64,000 bases of DNA from an uncultured virus (IMG/VR IMGVR_UViG_3300046530_000052) (IMGVR_UViG_3300046530_000052:62001-126000); one strand, 5' to 3'; positions 27,008 through 35,143 are shown, counted from the stretch's first letter. Made by a program: numbers and translations. Notes: generated by a model from the sequence alone, not told the origin.

Positions 27008-27059
27008 CCCTCCTAGCCCCGTCAAGGGCTAGGAGGGGTTAGGACCTTTCTTTTTTTTC
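27008..27059. terminator. terminator between convergent genes
   Basis: CCCTCCTAGCCC-loop-GGGCTAGGAGGG followed by a T tract. Confidence 0.8.
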
Positions 27060-28363
27060 TATTTCAATGCGATATCAAGGTCAAGGATCGACGTCTTGCT
27101 ACCAGCGGTGTGAGCGGCCTTCATACGTTGCAACATCATTCGGGTAGGGATCAACACGATCTCGGAGCTAAGACGTTCTCCGTAAGCTCCTAGGCCTATC
27201 CCGCAGCAGATCTGGCAATACTCACCATCAACCAAGATACAACGGTTGGTAACACGGACTTGAGTAGGCTTACCTACCAGACTGTCCACGTTCTCCTTGG
27301 TAATCAGGGTAGTTGCTTTGTTGATAGACGCATAAACACCAATCCAGTACTTCTTGTTGGACTTGGCGATCAACACTGTCTCAGTAGAAGGACTACCGCA
27401 ATCAGGAGTGGTCATGGAAACCACTGCACGACCGATCAGGCGCAGAGTTTCCTTAACCTGACTACCACCTTCACCTGTTGCCATGGAACGGCTGTACGAG
27501 CCTGCTACGGCGGTGTTGATGTACGCAGCCAGATGAGTAACGTCCCAGCCTTCATCCAGAGACTGAGTAAGCGCAACCCATCCATCCCCAGTGTCATTCG
27601 GCTCAATACCGAATGCAATGAACATCCGCTTCCGGCTGTTATCGATGAACTTCTTGTTAATGAAGAATTTCTTACTGGGTCCTTCCAGCATCTTCTTCAT
27701 GTCCAGTGCTACAACCTGGTCCACGATGGTGGTGAAGACAACCGGGTCATTCAGTTCGTGAGCATGCTCTTTGAAGAGACGATCACGAAGCGCAATAACT
27801 TCAGGGTCTACTGTCAGGGCATCCAGACCGCCCGGCTTGATGTAGTGGGTACCCAAGCCTTCAAGGAAGTTACAGTTGTGGGTGAACATGAGACATTCAT
27901 CCACAGAGGCTTTGCCCTGAGGAACTGTTTCACCCTGTTTAGGGTTGTCAACCATGATCTCCCGGAAGAGGTCTTCAAAGAACCCTTTGGTAAACTCACG
28001 GTTAACGTATTCAACAGTACCCTTGAACGGCTCCCAGATCAGGATGATGTTGAAGATGAACAACCCGAAGGTGGTCTTAACCGGTTTACCTTTCAGGATA
28101 GGGTGGAAGTCACCCGGCAGTTCTAGCAACTCATCCATGTAGAAGAGAGGTTCATTGACGTTACCCCCTTCAACCCGAACAGGCATGCCATCGATAAGGG
28201 TCCAGTGATAACCTTTCTCGATATAGACCGCATGAGGTTCCAGTTTGAACAGTTCAGACGAATCAGGGTCTTCGAACTGAATAGTGATCAGGGACTGGAT
28301 ACTGCCCTTGCTGTCGTAACCGTCATTGGTAATAAAGTGCTTGAGGTATTCGAGCTTATTCAC
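27059..28363 (-). CDS. virion RNA polymerase beta' C-terminal subunit (phiKZ gp80-like)
   Basis: SLDEGW, bridge-helix-like GSYSRSMATGEGG, DCGS, C...CQICCG Zn site; 434 aa. Confidence 0.85.
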   Translation of the reverse strand: MNKLEYLKHFITNDGYDSKGSIQSLITIQFEDPDSSELFKLEPHAVYIEKGYHWTLIDGMPVRVEGGNVNEPLFYMDELLELPGDFHPILKGKPVKTTFGLFIFNIILIWEPFKGTVEYVNREFTKGFFEDLFREIMVDNPKQGETVPQGKASVDECLMFTHNCNFLEGLGTHYIKPGGLDALTVDPEVIALRDRLFKEHAHELNDPVVFTTIVDQVVALDMKKMLEGPSKKFFINKKFIDNSRKRMFIAFGIEPNDTGDGWVALTQSLDEGWDVTHLAAYINTAVAGSYSRSMATGEGGSQVKETLRLIGRAVVSMTTPDCGSPSTETVLIAKSNKKYWIGVYASINKATTLITKENVDSLVGKPTQVRVTNRCILVDGEYCQICCGIGLGAYGERLSSEIVLIPTRMMLQRMKAAHTAGSKTSILDLDIALK

Positions 28364-29258
28364 TGATGATTACCCCTTCAATCATTTCTTCTATTCTGGT
28401 GATCGAGGTAATGTCTTCAATCACACTGTACAGATACTGAGAGACCTTCTCTTTCAGCCAATGGTCGTTGATCTCGGAGATAAGGTAGAAACACAACACT
28501 TCCTTGGCGTACGCAAGGTTAGCTTCCACGGTATTAACCGCTAGGAGCTCCTCTAGGTAGTCTTTAAAGAAGTTTAGGTACGTTGGCATAGTGCCACCAG
28601 CCTGACCGTTGTTAATCAAGTGGTCGTACGCCTTAGTGCCTTCCAGAAACGCTTTGTTAGCTATCACCCGGTTAACAATGTTATCTGGAGTGTTGGCCAT
28701 CTCCTCGGGACTGAAGAGAGTATCCTTAATAGCTTTCAACGTTACTTCGGAAATGTCTTCGATCATGCACTCGTATTCCGACAGATCCTCATCTTCACCC
28801 CATAACTTCTGCATAGCCTGAAGGAGACGATTGACCGGCGGAATGTCCATGCATTCTAAAAGGGACTTCAGCCCGATGAGATCTTGATAGTCTTGGAGAC
28901 TCAAGAAGAAGTCCAGCAGTTTGCTCAACTCCTTGAGCTTGTCCTCACCAACCACGTCTTGATTGAGGGTAACTCCCATTTCAGTCAGCAGATTAATTGT
29001 ATTGACTGTCAACATTACAAAGACAGCCTGCTTCTTGACCGGCATGTCCAGGTCAGTGTTAGCAAGCACGTCAGCAATCTGGCTAGGGAGAACCGAGTTC
29101 TCATCCGACAGCATAATTAAATTAAACGCGTTATCCAATATTTTAGCCTGTAGAGGCGGGATAGCGCTGCGGAACGTAAACCACATCCCACCGACCATAG
29201 TGTCGGCGAGGTTACCTTCCTCGTTCAAGTCTACTGATTCTTCGACATCGATAAGCAT
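28356..29258 (-). CDS. conserved protein co-transcribed with the vRNAP subunit (phiKZ gp79-like, putative virion protein)
   Basis: 300-aa acidic helical ORF overlapping the vRNAP start; GAGGG RBS. Confidence 0.7.
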   Translation of the reverse strand: MLIDVEESVDLNEEGNLADTMVGGMWFTFRSAIPPLQAKILDNAFNLIMLSDENSVLPSQIADVLANTDLDMPVKKQAVFVMLTVNTINLLTEMGVTLNQDVVGEDKLKELSKLLDFFLSLQDYQDLIGLKSLLECMDIPPVNRLLQAMQKLWGEDEDLSEYECMIEDISEVTLKAIKDTLFSPEEMANTPDNIVNRVIANKAFLEGTKAYDHLINNGQAGGTMPTYLNFFKDYLEELLAVNTVEANLAYAKEVLCFYLISEINDHWLKEKVSQYLYSVIEDITSITRIEEMIEGVIISE

Positions 29259-29297
29259 CGATTAACCCTCTGTTTAATTCAAGGAAGCTATAGCATC

Positions 29298-30149
29298 ATG
29301 GCAACTAAAAAACAAAGCATGAAAGCCAAAAAAGACACTCGCAAGAAGACGAAAGCGAAGGTTCGGGTTAAATCATCGCAGAGCAGTGTCTTCGGTCAAC
29401 GTAGCGCCGGTGGCTTCCACGACAAACGCGTCAGCATCTACGACCTGATCAACGACGTCAAAAGCGGCGCCACTCACATCAAGTCCAAACTGGCCAAAGG
29501 CGAGATTCCTGAAGTAGGGATCGACCGTCTGGACTTCCTGAAAGGTATTCAGGAAACCATGGGCCAAGTGATCAAGATGCACGGCGGTATCGCGGTGTAC
29601 ATGCTGCTGGCTGAGAACGAAAGCCGCTTCCAGATCACTCCTGAGAACGCCGAGCGTATCGAGGGCTACGAGCGTTCCGTTGTTCGCTTTGTAGAAAACG
29701 TTGATGCCGTGGTTCTGCTGGACCAAGCCAAGAAACTGCCAGAAGATTACATCGAACTGGTTATCGACATGGCCGACGTACTGCGTGACCTGATGGTTAT
29801 CCAGCACATTCCTACTTACGAGATGCTCAAGCGTAAGGAACAGGAAATCAACCGCTACATCACCGAACACCTGCCAACCGGTATGGACGTCTTCGAATAC
29901 ACCCGTGGTCTCCACGAAGAGCGTATCAAGCAGGTCGGTCCTCTGTACGTGACCACTGAAGGCGTCAGCGCCAAAGAGATCGCCGACATGGTCCTGATGA
30001 CTCAGGATCTCATGAACGAGAATGGTGAAGACGTTGTTGTCTCCGTTGACACCAGCAACATCAAGCCGGACGAGCATCCTGACGTCGAGCCGGTTAAAGA
30101 TATCCCGCAAGACCCTATTACCGAACAACGTATCAAGGACGCTCAATAA
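29298..30149 (+). CDS. hypothetical protein with Lys-rich N-terminus and acidic C-terminus
   Basis: 283 aa; starts MATKKQSMKAKKDTRKKTKAKVRVK; AAGGAAG RBS. Confidence 0.75.
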   Translation: MATKKQSMKAKKDTRKKTKAKVRVKSSQSSVFGQRSAGGFHDKRVSIYDLINDVKSGATHIKSKLAKGEIPEVGIDRLDFLKGIQETMGQVIKMHGGIAVYMLLAENESRFQITPENAERIEGYERSVVRFVENVDAVVLLDQAKKLPEDYIELVIDMADVLRDLMVIQHIPTYEMLKRKEQEINRYITEHLPTGMDVFEYTRGLHEERIKQVGPLYVTTEGVSAKEIADMVLMTQDLMNENGEDVVVSVDTSNIKPDEHPDVEPVKDIPQDPITEQRIKDAQ

Positions 30150-31864
30150 TGGCTGACGAAAACAAACCGACCGAACCCACGGAACAGTCCGCTCTGGCCA
30201 GCGCTGTAGCAAGCGCCATTCCTCCGGCACCCAAGGTCTTCAGTTACGGCGATACCCACACCCCCGAGAACACCCCACTGAAGGTTCCGGTAAACTCTCT
30301 GCCTGAATCGGTAGGTAAGCTGGAAGACAGCGACGTCACTCGTGGTCAGGGCTTCACCACGGTGTACATCGGTAACAGTAAGGAAGACTACACTGCTGTT
30401 CAGGAACTGGTTTCCATCTGGTTCTCGATCAGCAGCATCCGTAACGCTTCCAAAGGCAACCGTATCAACCAGAGCATGCTCAACGCTGCCATGGCTGAAT
30501 GGAAACAGTACTGTGATGACAACTTCCCGGGCGTTACTTACGACGAGATGGAAGCGCGTGCGGCGGATATGTACCGCTACCTCCAGAACACGTCGGACCC
30601 GATCATGGTCAAGACCCGCATGATGCTGGAAGATGTTTCCAACGTCTACAAGGCCTCTGACACGATCGTGGTGGGTGACATCACCGGCATGATCCCGAGT
30701 GCTACGGCTAAGCCCAACAGTCTGTCTGAAGAGATGGAGCGTGGCGCTTCCCGCGGTAACTCCAGTCCGTACCTGTACTCGGTAGGTCTGCGTAACAGCT
30801 TCTGTAAGTTCCAGTTCTCCCGTGGTCACAAGACCGATGCGGCGATCATGATCAACGAGATCAACGCGACCATTCGTGGTTACGTTCGTACCGTCGGCGG
30901 TAACTCTCTGGTGTTGTCGACCATTGCCGGTTACCGTGCTGTCTGGAACTGGCTGGTTCCTTATATCACCAGCTCCAGTGTTGACGGCGTTGCTGACTTC
31001 AACGATCTGGCTCGGGTTATCCGTTTCCGTGACATGGAAGTTATCCTGGCTGCGCTGCTGGCGTCCTTCGAAGACGATGAAGCCAACATGGACCTGCGTT
31101 GCTTCAACATGGGCTGTGACTGGAGCTCGTACGAGAAGATCAACCCTGCGCTGCTGGTTCGCGCTCGTCCGGTAGCTCATACCGAACAAGAGCTGGCTGT
31201 TCTGGGTAACATCTTCAACGGTACTGCTCGCTACAACATCCGTCAGGTTCTGGACTTGATCGACAATGCCACCTACGGCATCGAAGATAACTACCTGTAC
31301 AACGAGAAGCAGACCATTCGTCTGACCATGGGTTCGACTTCGTTGGCTGAGGCCTTCGCTGCGCTGGACTACATGGTTACTCAGGTGGATCCGCAGATCG
31401 CCAGTGCACGTAGCACCCTGACCGACCAGGCTGCTCTGGAAGCTCAGATCGGTATCATCCTGAGCGGTGTTGGTGGTTGCGAGTTCCTGCATTGGGTTAA
31501 AGAGTTCGCTCTGCTGCCTGAACCGGGTACCGAAGGCGAGCCGAAGATCTTCAAGCGTCGTGACTCTGACCAGCTCGAGTTCAACAAAGGCCTGCGTGGC
31601 GTGTTGAAGGTAGACCCTTACCTCGACAACCAAGTTACCCGGTTCGCGTACACCGTTGGTCCGTACATGACCAAGACCTTTATCGGTCTGCGTAACTGCA
31701 AGTGCCCGAAATGTGGCAAGGGTGCTGAAGAAGTGAACGGTCAAGCTCGCAACTTGGGCTACACCCCGATCGATGTGTTCATGACTTTTTTTACCCATAC
31801 CCAGTTCATGTTGGTGCGTCAAGCGGAAGCGAAACAGCGAGTCGAGCTCGCAGCCCGCTCTTAA
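30149..31864 (+). CDS. putative tail/baseplate-hub assembly chaperone (T4 gp26-like C-terminus), zero-frame product
   Basis: 571 aa; C-x4-C and CKCPKCG motifs; ...DVFMTFF ends over a T7 slippery site. Confidence 0.6.
   Translation: MADENKPTEPTEQSALASAVASAIPPAPKVFSYGDTHTPENTPLKVPVNSLPESVGKLEDSDVTRGQGFTTVYIGNSKEDYTAVQELVSIWFSISSIRNASKGNRINQSMLNAAMAEWKQYCDDNFPGVTYDEMEARAADMYRYLQNTSDPIMVKTRMMLEDVSNVYKASDTIVVGDITGMIPSATAKPNSLSEEMERGASRGNSSPYLYSVGLRNSFCKFQFSRGHKTDAAIMINEINATIRGYVRTVGGNSLVLSTIAGYRAVWNWLVPYITSSSVDGVADFNDLARVIRFRDMEVILAALLASFEDDEANMDLRCFNMGCDWSSYEKINPALLVRARPVAHTEQELAVLGNIFNGTARYNIRQVLDLIDNATYGIEDNYLYNEKQTIRLTMGSTSLAEAFAALDYMVTQVDPQIASARSTLTDQAALEAQIGIILSGVGGCEFLHWVKEFALLPEPGTEGEPKIFKRRDSDQLEFNKGLRGVLKVDPYLDNQVTRFAYTVGPYMTKTFIGLRNCKCPKCGKGAEEVNGQARNLGYTPIDVFMTFFTHTQFMLVRQAEAKQRVELAARS
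31786..31792 (+). other. putative -1 programmed frameshift site T-TTT-TTT
   Basis: X-XXY-YYZ heptamer correctly phased (ACT TTT TTT); the -1 frame is open from 31729 to 32361. Confidence 0.75.
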
Positions 31865-32361
31865 TCACGGGGGAGGCTTTCCATAACGATCAGTACAGGC
31901 AAGCGTTCGCTAACTTAGCGGACATCGATCAGTCTATCTTCACGACTGAACAGCTTGCCTTGAACAAAGATCTGTTATACGACATGAATATGGGTTATAT
32001 CGACGTCAAGCGAATTCGACCCGGTCATGGTGCTCTCTATTACGAGGCCGAGAATGAGTACAATCATCCTTGGTCAATGGAATACGTGATGGAACAGTAT
32101 CATTTCCATAAGCTGCACGAGTTCATGACGTTGACGGAATACCTGAACACACCTGCCTTTATGGTTAAGCGAATCCTTAAAGGCAGTGCTAAAGGCAAAG
32201 CTGATCGCGCTAAATGGGATGAGGAGAAAAGGAAGGAAGCTGAGCGGCTCAAGAAGGGTCAGTTCAAGGACACTTCCAATCCCAACATGCCTATTGAAGA
32301 TGAGCAACTTGCTGAAGCATGGAAACTTGCCAATACAGAAATGGGAGGCAAGAACCAATAA
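31792..32361 (+). CDS. frameshift extension (GT/gp51-like part of the chaperone); called by the ORF track as TTG ORF 31960..32361
   Basis: No ATG/GTG/TTG in frame for 77 codons before 31960; contains FHKLHEFMTLTEYLNTP, similar to tail-chaperone extension motifs. Confidence 0.65.
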   Translation, partial: YPYPVHVGASSGSETASRARSPLLITGEAFHNDQYRQAFANLADIDQSIFTTEQLALNKDLLYDMNMGYIDVKRIRPGHGALYYEAENEYNHPWSMEYVMEQYHFHKLHEFMTLTEYLNTPAFMVKRILKGSAKGKADRAKWDEEKRKEAERLKKGQFKDTSNPNMPIEDEQLAEAWKLANTEMGGKNQ

Positions 32362-32369
32362 GCTTATAT

Positions 32370-32403
32370 CTCAGGCCTCCCTTTGGGGAGGTCTGGGTAT
32401 TTT
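32370..32403 (+). terminator. rho-independent terminator
   Basis: CTCAGGCCTCCC-TTTG-GGGAGGTCTGGG followed by TATTTT. Confidence 0.7.
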
Positions 32404-32456
32404 ATGGTGTACACCCATGTAGCACTTTATTTTCTATTCAGGAAGGGGCCCCTTTC

Positions 32457-33068
32457 ATGAGCAAACGCGAAGATTACGTTGCACCGGTAGTTGAGAAACT
32501 ATCCGGCGAGCAACTGCCTGCTGTGGAGGTTGTTGAAACCGCCCCAGTAGTTAAAGCGGAGACTGCACGTCTTCCGGGTATTGTTATCCCCACACAGATC
32601 GGTGTTGGTAAGCTGCTGAACGCCAAGGCGACCGCAGTGACCGACATCCTGATCAGCCGTGTTGAAAAGCACCTCGGTCACACCATCGGCGAAGTTGGCT
32701 TTGTCGATAAAGAAGATCGGGCTAACGAGCAGGGCGGTTTCATCAATACCGTTCTGGGTAGCTTGGAGCTGGACTTCGACAAGTATGTGGTCTTCACTGA
32801 CTACCTGCTGACCCAGCTGCGTGAAAACGCTGCCTCGATCAACACGGGTAAACTGCTTCGTCATATGGCCGGCTTGCCCGAGTCGTACGACAAAGACAAG
32901 GTTCGCAAGTACACCACGTACATGTCGTTCCTGACCCGCATTGCGTTGAACTGGAACATCCGCTACAAACTGAACACCCTGATCGACGTTAACTTGTTCG
33001 TCTCGGGTTTCAGCGAGAAAGGCTCGGAAAACATCACCACTTATTTCAACCAGCTTCAGAACGTTTAA
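32457..33068 (+). CDS. hypothetical, probable virion protein
   Basis: ATG 32457 with GGAAGGGG RBS; first gene of a head-protein cluster. Confidence 0.7.
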   Translation: MSKREDYVAPVVEKLSGEQLPAVEVVETAPVVKAETARLPGIVIPTQIGVGKLLNAKATAVTDILISRVEKHLGHTIGEVGFVDKEDRANEQGGFINTVLGSLELDFDKYVVFTDYLLTQLRENAASINTGKLLRHMAGLPESYDKDKVRKYTTYMSFLTRIALNWNIRYKLNTLIDVNLFVSGFSEKGSENITTYFNQLQNV

Positions 33069-33078
33069 GGATTCCATC

Positions 33079-34089
33079 ATGAGTCAGGAAAACGCAATGC
33101 AAGACGATATCGTTATCGACGAGAACGAAGAGTTCGTCGCACCTGAATCCAGCCACATCGAGCTGGTCTTCCAAGCCCTCGGTGACACTGTCAATGCCGT
33201 TGCTGGTACCGAAGGTCTGACCACCGCTCAACTGTACTTCCACGGCGTTCTGAACGCGTCTGGCCAGCTGAGCTACACCGACTCGGTCTCCGGTGCTGAA
33301 GGCTTCTTCGCCAACGTGAAAGAAGGTGCTTCCAAAGCCATCGCTTACATCAAGAAGATGGTCAAGGAAATCTGGGGCTTCTTCTTCAAGAAGCAAGGTC
33401 CGGAAGAAGCCAAGGCTGTTAAGGAAGCTGTTGCTGGTACCGCTGCCGACCTCGCCAACGTCGAGAAAGTCAAATCCGGCCTGAAGAGCGCCGCTGGTTC
33501 CGACTCGAAAGAGCTGGTTGAACACATCAGTAAGGCGAGCACCATCGCTGAACTGAACACCGTGTCGAAAGACGTGGCGAAGAAGAACACCAAGGCTCAG
33601 CAAGGTCTGGTCGTCAAGATCAACCAACTGGTTGAATCGCTGGAAGCCGAAGTCAAGCTGGCTGAAGAAGTCGAAACCGAAGCCAAGAAGTCCGGCGAAG
33701 CAGGTTACACCGCTTGGGCATCGGGCGTGAAAGGCGGCGTGTCGGGTACTCAGTCCCTGATCACCACCCTGAAAGGTATTCGCGATCTGGCTGACCTGAA
33801 GGCTGCTGAAGACACCCTCGGTGCACTGAAGTCTCACGTCGAGATCATCAGCCGCGCTCTGGAAGCCTCCGGCGGTACCGAATCCCGCGTTCAGGGCATG
33901 ATCGACACCCTGTCCACTCTGGATGGCAACAACTCCGCCAGCGACGAACAGAAGAAGCAAGGCGACGACAACCTGAAAGCTCTACAGCTTTTCGTTAAGT
34001 CGGCTGCTCGCTACTCCGCTCTCCTGAAGCGTACCCTTTCCCATATGAAATCTGTCAACACTGCCACCGGCAAAGTGTTCGGCGTTTAA
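33079..34089 (+). CDS. internal head protein, paralog family, G-x-E processed
   Basis: Acidic N-terminus, AGTE and GAE sites, then GFFANVKEGASKAIAYIKKMVKEIWGFFFKK; clear paralog of the next gene. Confidence 0.75.
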   Translation: MSQENAMQDDIVIDENEEFVAPESSHIELVFQALGDTVNAVAGTEGLTTAQLYFHGVLNASGQLSYTDSVSGAEGFFANVKEGASKAIAYIKKMVKEIWGFFFKKQGPEEAKAVKEAVAGTAADLANVEKVKSGLKSAAGSDSKELVEHISKASTIAELNTVSKDVAKKNTKAQQGLVVKINQLVESLEAEVKLAEEVETEAKKSGEAGYTAWASGVKGGVSGTQSLITTLKGIRDLADLKAAEDTLGALKSHVEIISRALEASGGTESRVQGMIDTLSTLDGNNSASDEQKKQGDDNLKALQLFVKSAARYSALLKRTLSHMKSVNTATGKVFGV

Positions 34090-34099
34090 GGAGTCCTCG

Positions 34100-35143
34100 A
34101 TGGACGAAGTAATGAGCGAAGACGAACTGAGCATGGAAGTGGCTATCCCTGCTCCGGAACACATCGAAACCATCCTCGACGGCGTCAGCGACTCCCTCGA
34201 CCAGGTGGCGGGTACCGAAAGCTTGACCAACGCACAGGTTTACCTGGGTTCGGTTCTGGCTGCCAACGGTTACATCCGCAAGAACCAGGTTGGTCAGGAA
34301 GGCTTCTTGGCGAAAGCCGGTGAAGGTTTCAAAGCCGCTGTTGCCTACGTCAAGAAGATGTTCACCAACCTCTGGGACTTCTTCTTCAAGCGTGACGCAC
34401 CGAAGCTGGTAGCTGAGGCCAAGGAAGAGGTCAAGGCTGCTGAAGACGCCCTCAAGGTCATCGAGTCCGGCGGTAGCAACGAGAAAGAAACCACTGAAGC
34501 GCTGACCAACATGCGCAAAGTGATTCTGGCTCTGAGCCACGAACCTGACACCAACAAGTCTGCTCTGGATCAGATCCTGAAAGAAGCGGACGAAGCGATG
34601 AAGGGCGATCAAGCCAAGAAGAAAGCTGCCGTTCTCATGATCGGTCGTGAACTTCCGAAGCTGAACAAGCGCTCGACTACCGCCATGAAGAAACGTGTCG
34701 ACGACATGGTTCGTGTCCTGGTTGCGACCGAGAAGGCTGTCGACGCTGTTATCGACAAAGGCGAAGGTGTCAACGCTGCTTCGATCGAAAGGGTCTACGG
34801 CGCCAAGCTGAAGTCTGAGAAAGGTGAAATCGCTGGTGTCCTTGCCAAGTTCCAAAAGGCCAGTAGCGAAACCACTCCGGCTAACCTGAAGGACTGCTAC
34901 ACGTACACCTCGCAATCCATTGAAGCGGCAAGCCGTGCGCACACATCGCTGAAAGAGGGCGAGACCTCCATCAAGGCTGAAATCGCCAAGCTGGAAGCCG
35001 GTGAGGAGTCTACTCTCAAGAGTAGTGTTCAAGACCTCAAACGTCTGCTGAGTTCGGTTACCTCTTTGGCCCAAGTGACCAAAGAACTGCTGGGCTCCAG
35101 CCGTCAGTTGCTGAAAACCGGTAACAAGGCTTTCGGCTACTAA
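34100..35143 (+). CDS. internal head protein, tandem paralog of 33079..34089
   Basis: HIE...VAGTE.LT.AQ.Y...VL.A.G shared with the previous gene; both end in similar FG[VY] tails. Confidence 0.75.
   Translation: MDEVMSEDELSMEVAIPAPEHIETILDGVSDSLDQVAGTESLTNAQVYLGSVLAANGYIRKNQVGQEGFLAKAGEGFKAAVAYVKKMFTNLWDFFFKRDAPKLVAEAKEEVKAAEDALKVIESGGSNEKETTEALTNMRKVILALSHEPDTNKSALDQILKEADEAMKGDQAKKKAAVLMIGRELPKLNKRSTTAMKKRVDDMVRVLVATEKAVDAVIDKGEGVNAASIERVYGAKLKSEKGEIAGVLAKFQKASSETTPANLKDCYTYTSQSIEAASRAHTSLKEGETSIKAEIAKLEAGEESTLKSSVQDLKRLLSSVTSLAQVTKELLGSSRQLLKTGNKAFGY

Follow-up and report, generated by a model that had tools for sequence, protein, structure and literature searches.

A candidate -1 frameshift linking two annotated genes of nucleus-forming jumbo phages

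Are two neighboring genes, annotated separately throughout the nucleus-forming jumbo phages (Chimalliviridae), really two genes, or a single one that is recoded near its end to give two products? The question is raised by a locus in a 64,000-nucleotide stretch of DNA from an uncultured virus (IMGVR_UViG_3300046530_000052:62001-126000), which we call the window at its full length. On its plus strand lies a gene for a protein of 571 amino acids (30149-31864), orthologous to phiKZ gp77, EL gp47 and RAY gp251. It is followed by a small open reading frame (ORF) that gene callers would begin at a TTG codon (31960-32361, plus strand, 133 amino acids), orthologous to phiKZ gp76.4 and EL gp48. A reading made from the sequence alone had proposed that a hidden -1 programmed frameshift joins them, and had foreseen that gene callers would split the locus in two, as is indeed the case in 24 of 24 annotated isolate records. 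The proposal is now strongly supported by a conserved slip site, a conserved -1 frame and the coding signal within it. We find it very probable that a conserved -1 recoding event, be it ribosomal or transcriptional, joins the gp77-like and gp76.4-like ORFs.

A slippery heptamer and an open -1 frame

Codons 545 to 549 of the 571-amino-acid gene read ATG ACT TTT TTT ACC, with the in-frame ATG at 31781-31783. They contain the slippery heptamer T_TTT_TTT (31786-31792, plus strand), whose zero-frame codons ACT TTT TTT encode T546, F547 and F548. The first T of this seven-base run is the third base of codon 546, so that the heptamer stands in the X_XXY_YYZ phase of tandem -1 slippage, just as the sequence-only reading had it. 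It is also the sole run of six or more T in the gene. Phenylalanine is written elsewhere in the gene as TTT once and as TTC 20 times, and our recount of these codons gave the same figures as the manual count made before. The -1 frame is open from 31729 to a TAA at 32359-32361 and, again as described, its earliest ATG, GTG or TTG is the TTG at 31960, with no good ribosome-binding site: by eye, we saw no GGAG-like motif in the 20 nt before this codon or before the ATGs at 31987 and 31993.

From the heptamer onward, the -1 frame (31792-32361, plus strand) offers 189 codons plus the TAA, which would form the C-terminal part of a trans-frame product of 548 + 189 = 737 amino acids, the size estimated earlier, with the junction ...MTFF-YPYPVHVGASSGSETASRARSPLLITGEAFHNDQY.... 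The two frames overlap, as dual-coding sequence, over 72 nt (31792-31864, plus strand), where frame 0 encodes the last 23 residues of the short protein (...RVELAARS*) and the -1 frame encodes YPYPVHVGASSGSETASRARSPLL. The apparent intergenic gap that follows (31865-31959, plus strand) is coding in the -1 frame only and contains no start codon. A terminator-like hairpin of 12 pairs, 8 of them G-C, followed by TATTTTAT, lies at 32370-32397 on the plus strand, where it would end the transcription unit after the extension. Because this is the only plus-strand hairpin of its kind within 29000-33200 and it comes, as already noted, only beyond 32361, the gp77-like gene and the extension belong to one transcription unit. 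At the other end of the gene, the sequence TAATG at 30147-30151 makes the stop codon of a gp78-like gene overlap the start of the 571-amino-acid gene, which suggests translational coupling of the two.

The T run is not a sequencing error, a point settled by comparative data. The seven T are found without insertion or deletion in contigs of two other public runs (one of 64 kb at a depth of 30, and one of 36 kb), and a 195-nt contig from a relative covers 31746-31920 ungapped. The latter contig comes from a wastewater library labeled RNA-Seq cDNA, the RNA nature of which is a guess, and in which short contigs of a relative about 90% alike match 31746-32310. They cover the slip site, the gap and the extension. 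Small shares of the stretch occur in four such putative RNA runs from wastewater; for the phage itself, public records list no RNA run.

Conservation of the slip site and of the -1 frame

The comparison draws on 51 loci, 24 from isolates, 26 from IMG/VR and one from the window, which include phiKZ, EL, OBP, SPN3US and RSF1; related loci were sought with a single protein and with two sub-alignments. Of the 51 loci, 43 are distinct over the 260 nt around the site. A megablast search of the locus against the phage collection found no match. With tblastn, the 571-amino-acid protein was found in 69 records of this collection at E <= 1e-5, all below 60% identity, the best match being Pseudomonas phage EL gp47 (41%). 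A word-based homologue search returned 12 close relatives only. The SPN3US homologue links to the phiKZ-like phages (249 records); in phiKZ itself the orthologue is PHIKZ077, and the small ORF downstream is PHIKZ076.4. Identity between the homologous proteins and that of the window is as low as 12-41%.

Despite such divergence, the heptamer T_TTT_TTN is present in the same phase and at the same place in 41 of the 43 distinct loci (TTTTTTT in 20, TTTTTTC in another 20 and TTTTTTA in one), and the run reaches eight T in Ea35-70 and RSF1. The codon before the two phenylalanines ends in T in 23 of 25 isolates while encoding a variety of residues (ACT, AGT, AAT, GCT, GTT and GGT, for T, S, N, A, V and G). 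The first phenylalanine codon is TTT in 24 of the 25, against a TTT:TTC ratio of 163:371 (31% TTT) elsewhere in these genes. The distance from the slip site to the frame-0 stop is also kept within bounds, at 63-84 nt in 39 of the 43 distinct loci and 36-114 nt overall. The family-wide alignment across Chimalliviridae that had been proposed as a check of the frameshift thus finds both the heptamer and the coding signal over 31792-31960 conserved.

The small ORF lies in the -1 frame in all 43 distinct loci. Counted over the same 154-190 codons from the site, stop codons are absent from the -1 frame of these loci, whereas they average 8.9 in frame 0 (never below 4) and 17.2 in the +1 frame (never below 7). 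Seven of the first 19 loci have a -1 frame that becomes open as little as 6 codons upstream of the site. An alignment of 22 extensions shows four invariant residues, Pro2, Pro4, Leu23 and His92. The two prolines fall within the overlap, where they can be encoded only if frame 0 follows the pattern xxC Cxx xxC Cxx. Opposite them, frame 0 encodes varying residues (T/I/V/D/A; H/L/Q/R; T/S/R/A/I; Q/R), whose codons all keep the required C's, so that the -1 frame accounts for the constraint better than frame 0 does. The frame-0 tail beyond the two phenylalanines is conserved too, with the consensus ...ExEALS.

Substitutions in the apparent gap tell a similar story. In a comparison of the window with three relatives of 75-85% identity, the differences within 31865-31959 are found mainly on third codon positions as read in the -1 frame, which alone is open there. 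Synonymous to non-synonymous changes number 8:4, 8:5 and 9:10 in the gap, and 21:10, 17:6 and 31:18 in the undisputed part of the ORF. The apparent gap therefore seems to evolve as coding sequence does, and in this it resembles the ORF proper. What is seen, thus, is the anatomy of the locus, its conservation across the family and a coding signal in the -1 frame that runs from the slip site on, and divergent relatives keep the site and the trans-frame coding to a degree that the zero-frame protein alone would not require.

The annotated starts of the small ORF do not behave like those of an independent gene. Among the 24 isolates they lie anywhere from 11 to 236 nt past the frame-0 stop (PHIKZ077 and PHIKZ076.4, as annotated, are 218 nt apart), and consist of ATG, TTG, GTG or CTG. 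When a profile built from the 22 extensions was run against a library of 1.84 billion representative proteins, it retrieved 71 relatives, all of 61-172 amino acids, whose first residues align anywhere between profile positions 1 and 113; no natural in-frame fusion was found among these 71. The lack of both a plain fusion and a consistent start fits a recoding site that sets the ratio of two needed products. All in all, the -1 ORF overlaps the end of the zero frame, stays open all the way from the site and has no conserved start of its own.

Structure predictions place the two alternative endings in clearly different shapes. The AlphaFold model of the 571-amino-acid protein is good (pLDDT 83.3, pTM 0.84) and has a helix at residues 543-570, which begins just before the two phenylalanines and includes the frame-0 tail. 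That of the extension, built on the 22-sequence alignment, is modest (pLDDT 67), with residues 1-17 disordered ahead of a helical domain, and its helices 33-42 and 52-66 fall in or across the gap before the TTG. As modeled, the short product would end in a helix, and the long one would have a proline-rich linker and a further domain instead. The window extension matches two PHROGs, one of them 19747 (residues 58-160, E 2e-23), and the extensions of the phiKZ group align collinearly with the 22-extension set (hhalign E 2e-4, probability 46%, 112 columns). Because of this alignment and of the PHROG matches, the extension domain is probably orthologous across the family.

Decoding at the site and its competing explanations

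We regard -1 ribosomal frameshifting at this site as the likely form of the recoding. Most ribosomes would read on in frame 0 and make the 571-amino-acid protein, whose last 28 residues would form the C-terminal helix. Some would slip back by one base on T_TTT_TTT, with the two tRNA-Phe on UUU UUU, and go on in the -1 frame for 189 codons. In the resulting 737-amino-acid product, the terminal helix would be exchanged for the proline-rich linker (YPYPV...) and the helical domain known as phiKZ gp76.4. Selection would keep both products, in a ratio set by the slip site. We infer from sequence the ribosomal nature of the shift, its efficiency and the functioning of both products. The site itself is of a kind on which ribosomes are prone to shift: in the part of PMC4066793 available to us, U_UU.C is the second and U_UU.U the third most shift-prone tetramer in E. 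coli, U_UU.U_UU.C and U_UU.U_UU.U both shift at a level above 0.1% with no stimulator present, and insertion sequence (IS) elements make use of U_UU.U_UU.C among other heptamers.

Several observations weigh against this account. The 90 nt downstream of the site fold no better than shuffled sequences in 28 loci (z from -1.5 to +1.1). RNAalifold predicts no pairs in the EL group, and in the OBP group 8 pairs in two 4-bp helices with no compensatory change. No Shine-Dalgarno (SD)-like motif was seen by eye upstream of the slip site. With no stimulator found, efficiency may therefore be low. The full heptamer is absent from two of the 43 distinct loci, PS119XW (ATA TTT TTC) and pVa-21 (CTT TTT ACG). 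These still have an in-phase T_TTY tetramer, on which only the A-site tRNA can therefore re-pair. T4 gp26, which is made without a frameshift, has the two phenylalanines as a conserved protein motif too, and part of the conservation of the T run is therefore at the protein level. Finally, the frameshift and the extended product are deduced from sequence, not from protein.

The -1 frameshifts of the IS3 and IS1 families and of dnaX are the same kind of decoding event. Such sites usually come with a hairpin or pseudoknot downstream of them or with an SD-like stimulator upstream, unlike the chimallivirus site, at which we found none. Strong conservation marks the spacer that follows the heptamer, ACCCNTACCCAG or GACCRTACCCGA, yet it is also dual-coding; the conserved spacer near the slip site reads ACCCNTACCC. 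The OBP-group loci (for instance L045, 3100-3120) have a strongly conserved AAGAGGA...TCTTTCYTAA at the frame-0 stop, with an SD-like GAGGA and a possible 4-bp hairpin; it shows no compensatory change and is dual-coding as well.

The same fused protein would arise if a phage or host RNA polymerase added one U in the T run. Runs of seven or eight T in 20 of the 43 distinct loci are compatible with such transcriptional slippage, and chimalliviruses have multisubunit RNA polymerases of their own. UUUUUUU is avoided in genes, possibly for that very reason, according to the accessible part of PMC4066793. Yet in another 20 of the 43 loci the run has six T only (TTTTTTC), and in two it has five. A bacterial polymerase does not usually slip on runs shorter than about 9 bases. 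Moreover, a run selected for its length predicts TTT as the second phenylalanine codon, and TTC is equally common. No length variants appear in contigs, though contigs cannot reveal rare ones. A UUC codon in the A site is, on the other hand, the preference of the ribosomal U_UUC slip (same portion of PMC4066793). Taken together, this makes slippage of the polymerase an unlikely source of the -1 product.

It is more improbable still that these are two ordinary genes, in which the small ORF would start at TTG 31960, by a non-canonical start or by re-initiation, and the T run would do nothing beyond encoding two phenylalanines. This is what the 24 annotated isolate records say, and the protein-level conservation of the phenylalanines, including in T4 gp26 with no extension, would suit it, as would the failure to detect a stimulatory RNA structure. 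RisingSun and FishSpeaker, the start-bearing loci checked, do carry ATG codons inside the extension. However, the shifting gaps and mixed codons described above leave no conserved start, and in 43 of 43 loci the open, protein-conserved -1 frame reaches well past every annotated one, as far upstream as the slip site. Two separate genes would also leave unaccounted for the constraint on Pro2 and Pro4 within the overlap, as well as a T kept as third base before the phenylalanines through at least five amino-acid replacements, and the window has no SD-like motif with which the small ORF could be started.

What the two products might be

The sequence-only reading went further and took the locus for a tail assembly chaperone pair of the G/GT type, with a likeness to T4 gp26 and gp51. 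The part of this proposal that stood is a resemblance in predicted fold to T4 gp26/gp51; the G/GT label did not emerge from the comparisons. Of the profile and fold comparisons that it had called for, the fold search gave Foldseek matches in BFVD, and the profiles were not significant.

At the level of sequence, Pfam gave no match for either part at E 0.1, nor for 17 and 22 family members at E 10. The 571-amino-acid protein matches PHROG 4585 (E 4e-91), and the matching PHROGs are entries of unknown function. Neither the 571-amino-acid model nor that of the extension had a Foldseek match in the PDB at E <= 0.001. Against BFVD, the first 12 rows for the 571-amino-acid model are filled by members of its own family (E 1.5e-31 to 3.6e-12), and T4-type proteins rank below these and below some unnamed myovirus proteins, in a graded series. 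The T4-like matches, the targets of which are predicted and not solved structures, have E from 2.3e-4 to 0.1, a probability of up to 1.00, and TM scores of 0.38-0.58 by target and of just 0.15-0.29 by query. They include a 'Baseplate hub assembly protein, bacteriophage T4-like' (E 2.3e-4, probability 1.00, TM 0.49 by target), a 'putative baseplate hub subunit' of phage phiA8-29 (E 3e-4, TM 0.57), a 'Baseplate hub subunit' of Serratia phage 2050H1, a 'baseplate hub assembly chaperone' of ACP17 (E 2.7e-2, TM 0.52) and a 'T4 gp51-like' protein of Campylobacter phage CP21 (E 9e-2). Among the same matches are myovirus proteins of 389-974 amino acids from outside the named chimalliviruses (rows 6 and 13-20, E 9e-17 to 1e-4), one of them named 'Baseplate protein'; these may be intermediates between the 250-amino-acid T4 type and the 530-660-amino-acid jumbo-phage type. 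For the 571-amino-acid part, ESM-Atlas gives a lead (score 0.89) to a cluster with PF12322 (T4_baseplate) in 22% of its members.

Likeness extends to a few residues. The 571-amino-acid family has as near-invariant residues four cysteines and the two phenylalanines at 547-548. In the window, the first cysteine pair consists of C318 (31100-31102) and C323 (31115-31117), and the second is the CxxC of C519-P-K-C522 (31703-31714), 24 residues N-terminal of the phenylalanines, both pairs on the plus strand. The motifs CKCPKCG...FF and FHKLHEFMTLTEYLNTP, which had prompted the comparison with T4 gp26, are both there. The comparison was right in that T4 gp26 ends in ...KCPECGK...EFFELL, its C-terminus being ...KCPECGKTHAHVIRGLKEFFELL. 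It was wrong about what follows: gene 25 comes next, with no such -1 frame. An alignment of 28 gp26 homologues shows C82, C84, C187 and C190 as invariant, with F204 and F205 close to it, and gp51 has C85, C88, C185 and C186. T4 gp26/gp51 and the chimallivirus protein thus share, besides fold matches just below the protein's own family, two cysteine pairs some 100-200 residues apart and a conserved FF shortly past the second CxxC, a correspondence that was judged by eye, with no significant alignment. A short gp26 and a long gp51 also echo the short and long chimallivirus products. They differ in that the chimallivirus protein is more than twice as long and has no support from hidden Markov model (HMM) or profile-profile comparisons, and in that T4 relies on two genes and an internal start in gene 26 and on no frameshift. 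In T4 itself (NC_000866, 5803-7229), the genes of gp26 and gp51 are divergently transcribed neighbors that share PF12322, and the annotated internal start of gene 26 (26') means that more than one product is made there too, by other means.

Several results speak against a kinship with these T4 proteins. The PF12322 model has no match in 17 family members at E <= 10, and hhalign against gp26 and gp51 profiles gave probabilities of 0.6%, 1.5%, 24% and 20%, over a short stretch or the CxxC only. The genes around the locus in the window, EL, RisingSun, FishSpeaker and phiKZ are an RNA polymerase beta-like gene, a small hypothetical gene and DNA polymerase genes. An orthologue in phage Churi, gp256, which is the homologue of phiKZ gp077 and phiPA3 gp074, is among the non-structural proteins detected 15 min after infection, in the part of PMC11849849 at hand. 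The 126-kb record to which the window belongs gave no PF12322 match either, a result of little weight since control genomes gave none. With no support from sequence methods, we regard the 571-amino-acid family as related to gp26/gp51 in structure, short of demonstrated membership. Going by the models, it is possible, if tentative, that the 571-amino-acid protein is an enlarged relative of T4 gp26/gp51 acting in tail or baseplate assembly; the frameshift would then do for it what that of G/GT does in lambda-like phages. If the link to gp26/gp51 holds, it would also open a way into the obscure biochemistry of hub assembly proteins.

A bolder version of this idea concerns the extension. Homologues of gp26 contain PF12322 alone, and those of gp51 contain PF12322 and PF28602 (Gp51_C), which suggests that the short and long products might match gp26 and gp51. 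In this case one gene would yield a gp26-like hub-assembly protein (core) and a gp51-like one (core plus C-terminal domain) by a ribosomal frameshift kept throughout the family, on a bare U_UUU_UUY site that is possibly helped by the C-rich spacer or by a nascent FF-Pro-x-Pro peptide. We consider this rather doubtful. If true, it would represent the long-missing counterpart of the G/GT frameshift in the contractile-tail lineage of T4 and the jumbo phages, in which T4 uses two paralogous genes. Identity of the extension with Gp51_C is no more than a lead: the hhalign probability is 0.5%, the C-terminal part alone (60 residues) gives E 0.36, and the ESM-Atlas Gp51_C score of the extension, 0.79, is at chance level. 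To the eye, there is some resemblance of motif between FMTLTEYLNTP in the window, MSLTEFFELAY in phiKZ and NYSLNSISKMIP in T4 gp51.

How close, then, is this arrangement to the tail chaperones from which the G/GT label was borrowed? Like gpG/gpGT of lambda and gpE/gpE+E' of P2, it would give two proteins with one start and a common N-terminal part, through a -1 slip on a heptamer dozens of nucleotides before the frame-0 stop and into a second ORF with no start of its own; the arrangement is conserved despite sequence divergence, and a role in assembly more than in the finished particle is likely. Unlike them, it shows no sequence or profile similarity to those proteins (neither part has a Pfam or profile match to the gpG/GT and P2 gpE families), has 571 amino acids against roughly 100-150, carries a four-cysteine site in its frame-0 part and does not precede a tape-measure gene. 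The lambda-type heptamer is G_GGA_AAG-like, against T_TTT_TTY in chimalliviruses. Going by these comparisons, the 571-amino-acid protein is probably not a member of the lambda G/GT family. That the pair would still work literally as G and GT do, the short form binding the tape measure and the long one recruiting the tube protein, seems to us unlikely. The logic of a -1 slip near the 3' end, with a shared N-terminus and a C-terminal extension, is the same. The fold is related to that of T4 hub-assembly 'chaperones' (an NCBI name), and the phiKZ record has no virion flag on gp77, unlike gp79-81 and gp83-84, which suits a chaperone that leaves the particle. Against this, no match to Phage_P2_GpE or to another tail-chaperone family was found, the ESM-Atlas score for PF06528 (0.80) is at chance level according to the tool, and the protein is four times the size of gpG (571 against roughly 140 amino acids). 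As the sequence-only reading had itself remarked, the gene is also away from any tape-measure gene: its neighbors are virion-RNA-polymerase and DNA-polymerase genes, and no tape-measure gene adjoins it in the window, EL, RisingSun, FishSpeaker or phiKZ. The detection of the Churi orthologue at 15 min, in the available part of PMC11849849, does not favor this role either.

It is also a real possibility that the frameshift exists and the protein has nothing to do with tails, working instead early and inside the cell, in the handling of the virion RNA polymerase, in replication or in the phage nucleus; the likeness to gp26/gp51 would then reflect no more than an old shared zinc-binding scaffold. 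This would be in line with the synteny from EL to phiKZ, in which the virion RNA polymerase beta-like (gp80-like) and gp79-like genes on the opposite strand, with the DNA polymerase genes nearby, accompany the plus-strand order of gp78-like gene, 571-amino-acid gene and small ORF. Gene order is scrambled in these phages, however, so neighbors tell little. Nor do sequence profiles provide a PF12322 link, in agreement with an early role, whereas the T4-like hub-assembly matches in structure form a graded series below the family's own members, which goes against it. The non-structural status of the Churi orthologue at 15 min also favors such a role, yet this is a single time point in one paper (PMC11849849, the part at hand). 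In the phiKZ record, a structural note is present on gp79, 80, 81, 83 and 84, and there is none on gp77. The Goslar virion-structure preprint, in its accessible part, has no gp26- or gp51-like name among the hub and wedge proteins, a weak indication since the Goslar orthologue is unplaced there. Non-virion status suits an assembly chaperone and an intracellular role equally well.

Around the locus, the window encodes on its minus strand an orthologue of the virion RNA polymerase beta-like EL gp44 and phiKZ gp80 (27059-28363) and a gp79-like protein (28356-29258). These two genes share 8 nt, and their transcription diverges from that of the frameshift cluster, a layout also seen in EL, RisingSun, FishSpeaker, phiKZ, Ea35-70 and pVa-21. 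Beyond the cluster, two adjacent plus-strand ORFs, 33079-34089 (336 amino acids) and 34100-35143 (347 amino acids), have similar beginnings (IELVFQALGDTVNAVAGTEGLTTAQLYFHGVL and IETILDGVSDSLDQVAGTESLTNAQVYLGSVL) and also share ...KKMVKEIWGFFFKK... and ...KKMFTNLWDFFFKR..., so that the pair looks like a tandem duplication.

A frameshift at this locus is undescribed in the full-text literature searched, with subscription journals and bioRxiv supplements beyond the reach of the search; mentions of a gp77 there follow the gene numbering of other phages. The two ORFs are kept apart in each of the 24 annotated isolate records. The core-genome ortholog table has PHIKZ077 (FDH98_gp251) and PHIKZ076.4 in adjacent RAY gene columns (PMC10299810, supplementary file 3), and gp251 and gp252 are unmentioned in the main text of that paper (PMC10299810). 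Very probably, the arrangement has been kept across the whole family of nucleus-forming phages while being annotated everywhere as two genes. Much work is devoted to Chimalliviridae such as phiKZ, PhiPA3, 201phi2-1, Goslar and RAY, whose core genome, some 68 genes in size, serves as a parts list. Two entries in it, phiKZ gp77 and gp76.4 (PMC10299810), appear to stand for a single recoded gene and its two products. For either ORF, this would alter the reading of knock-outs, Tn-seq, tagging and proteomics. It would also add to the -1 frameshifts of bacterial viruses a clean and deeply conserved example that seemingly operates without a classical stimulator.

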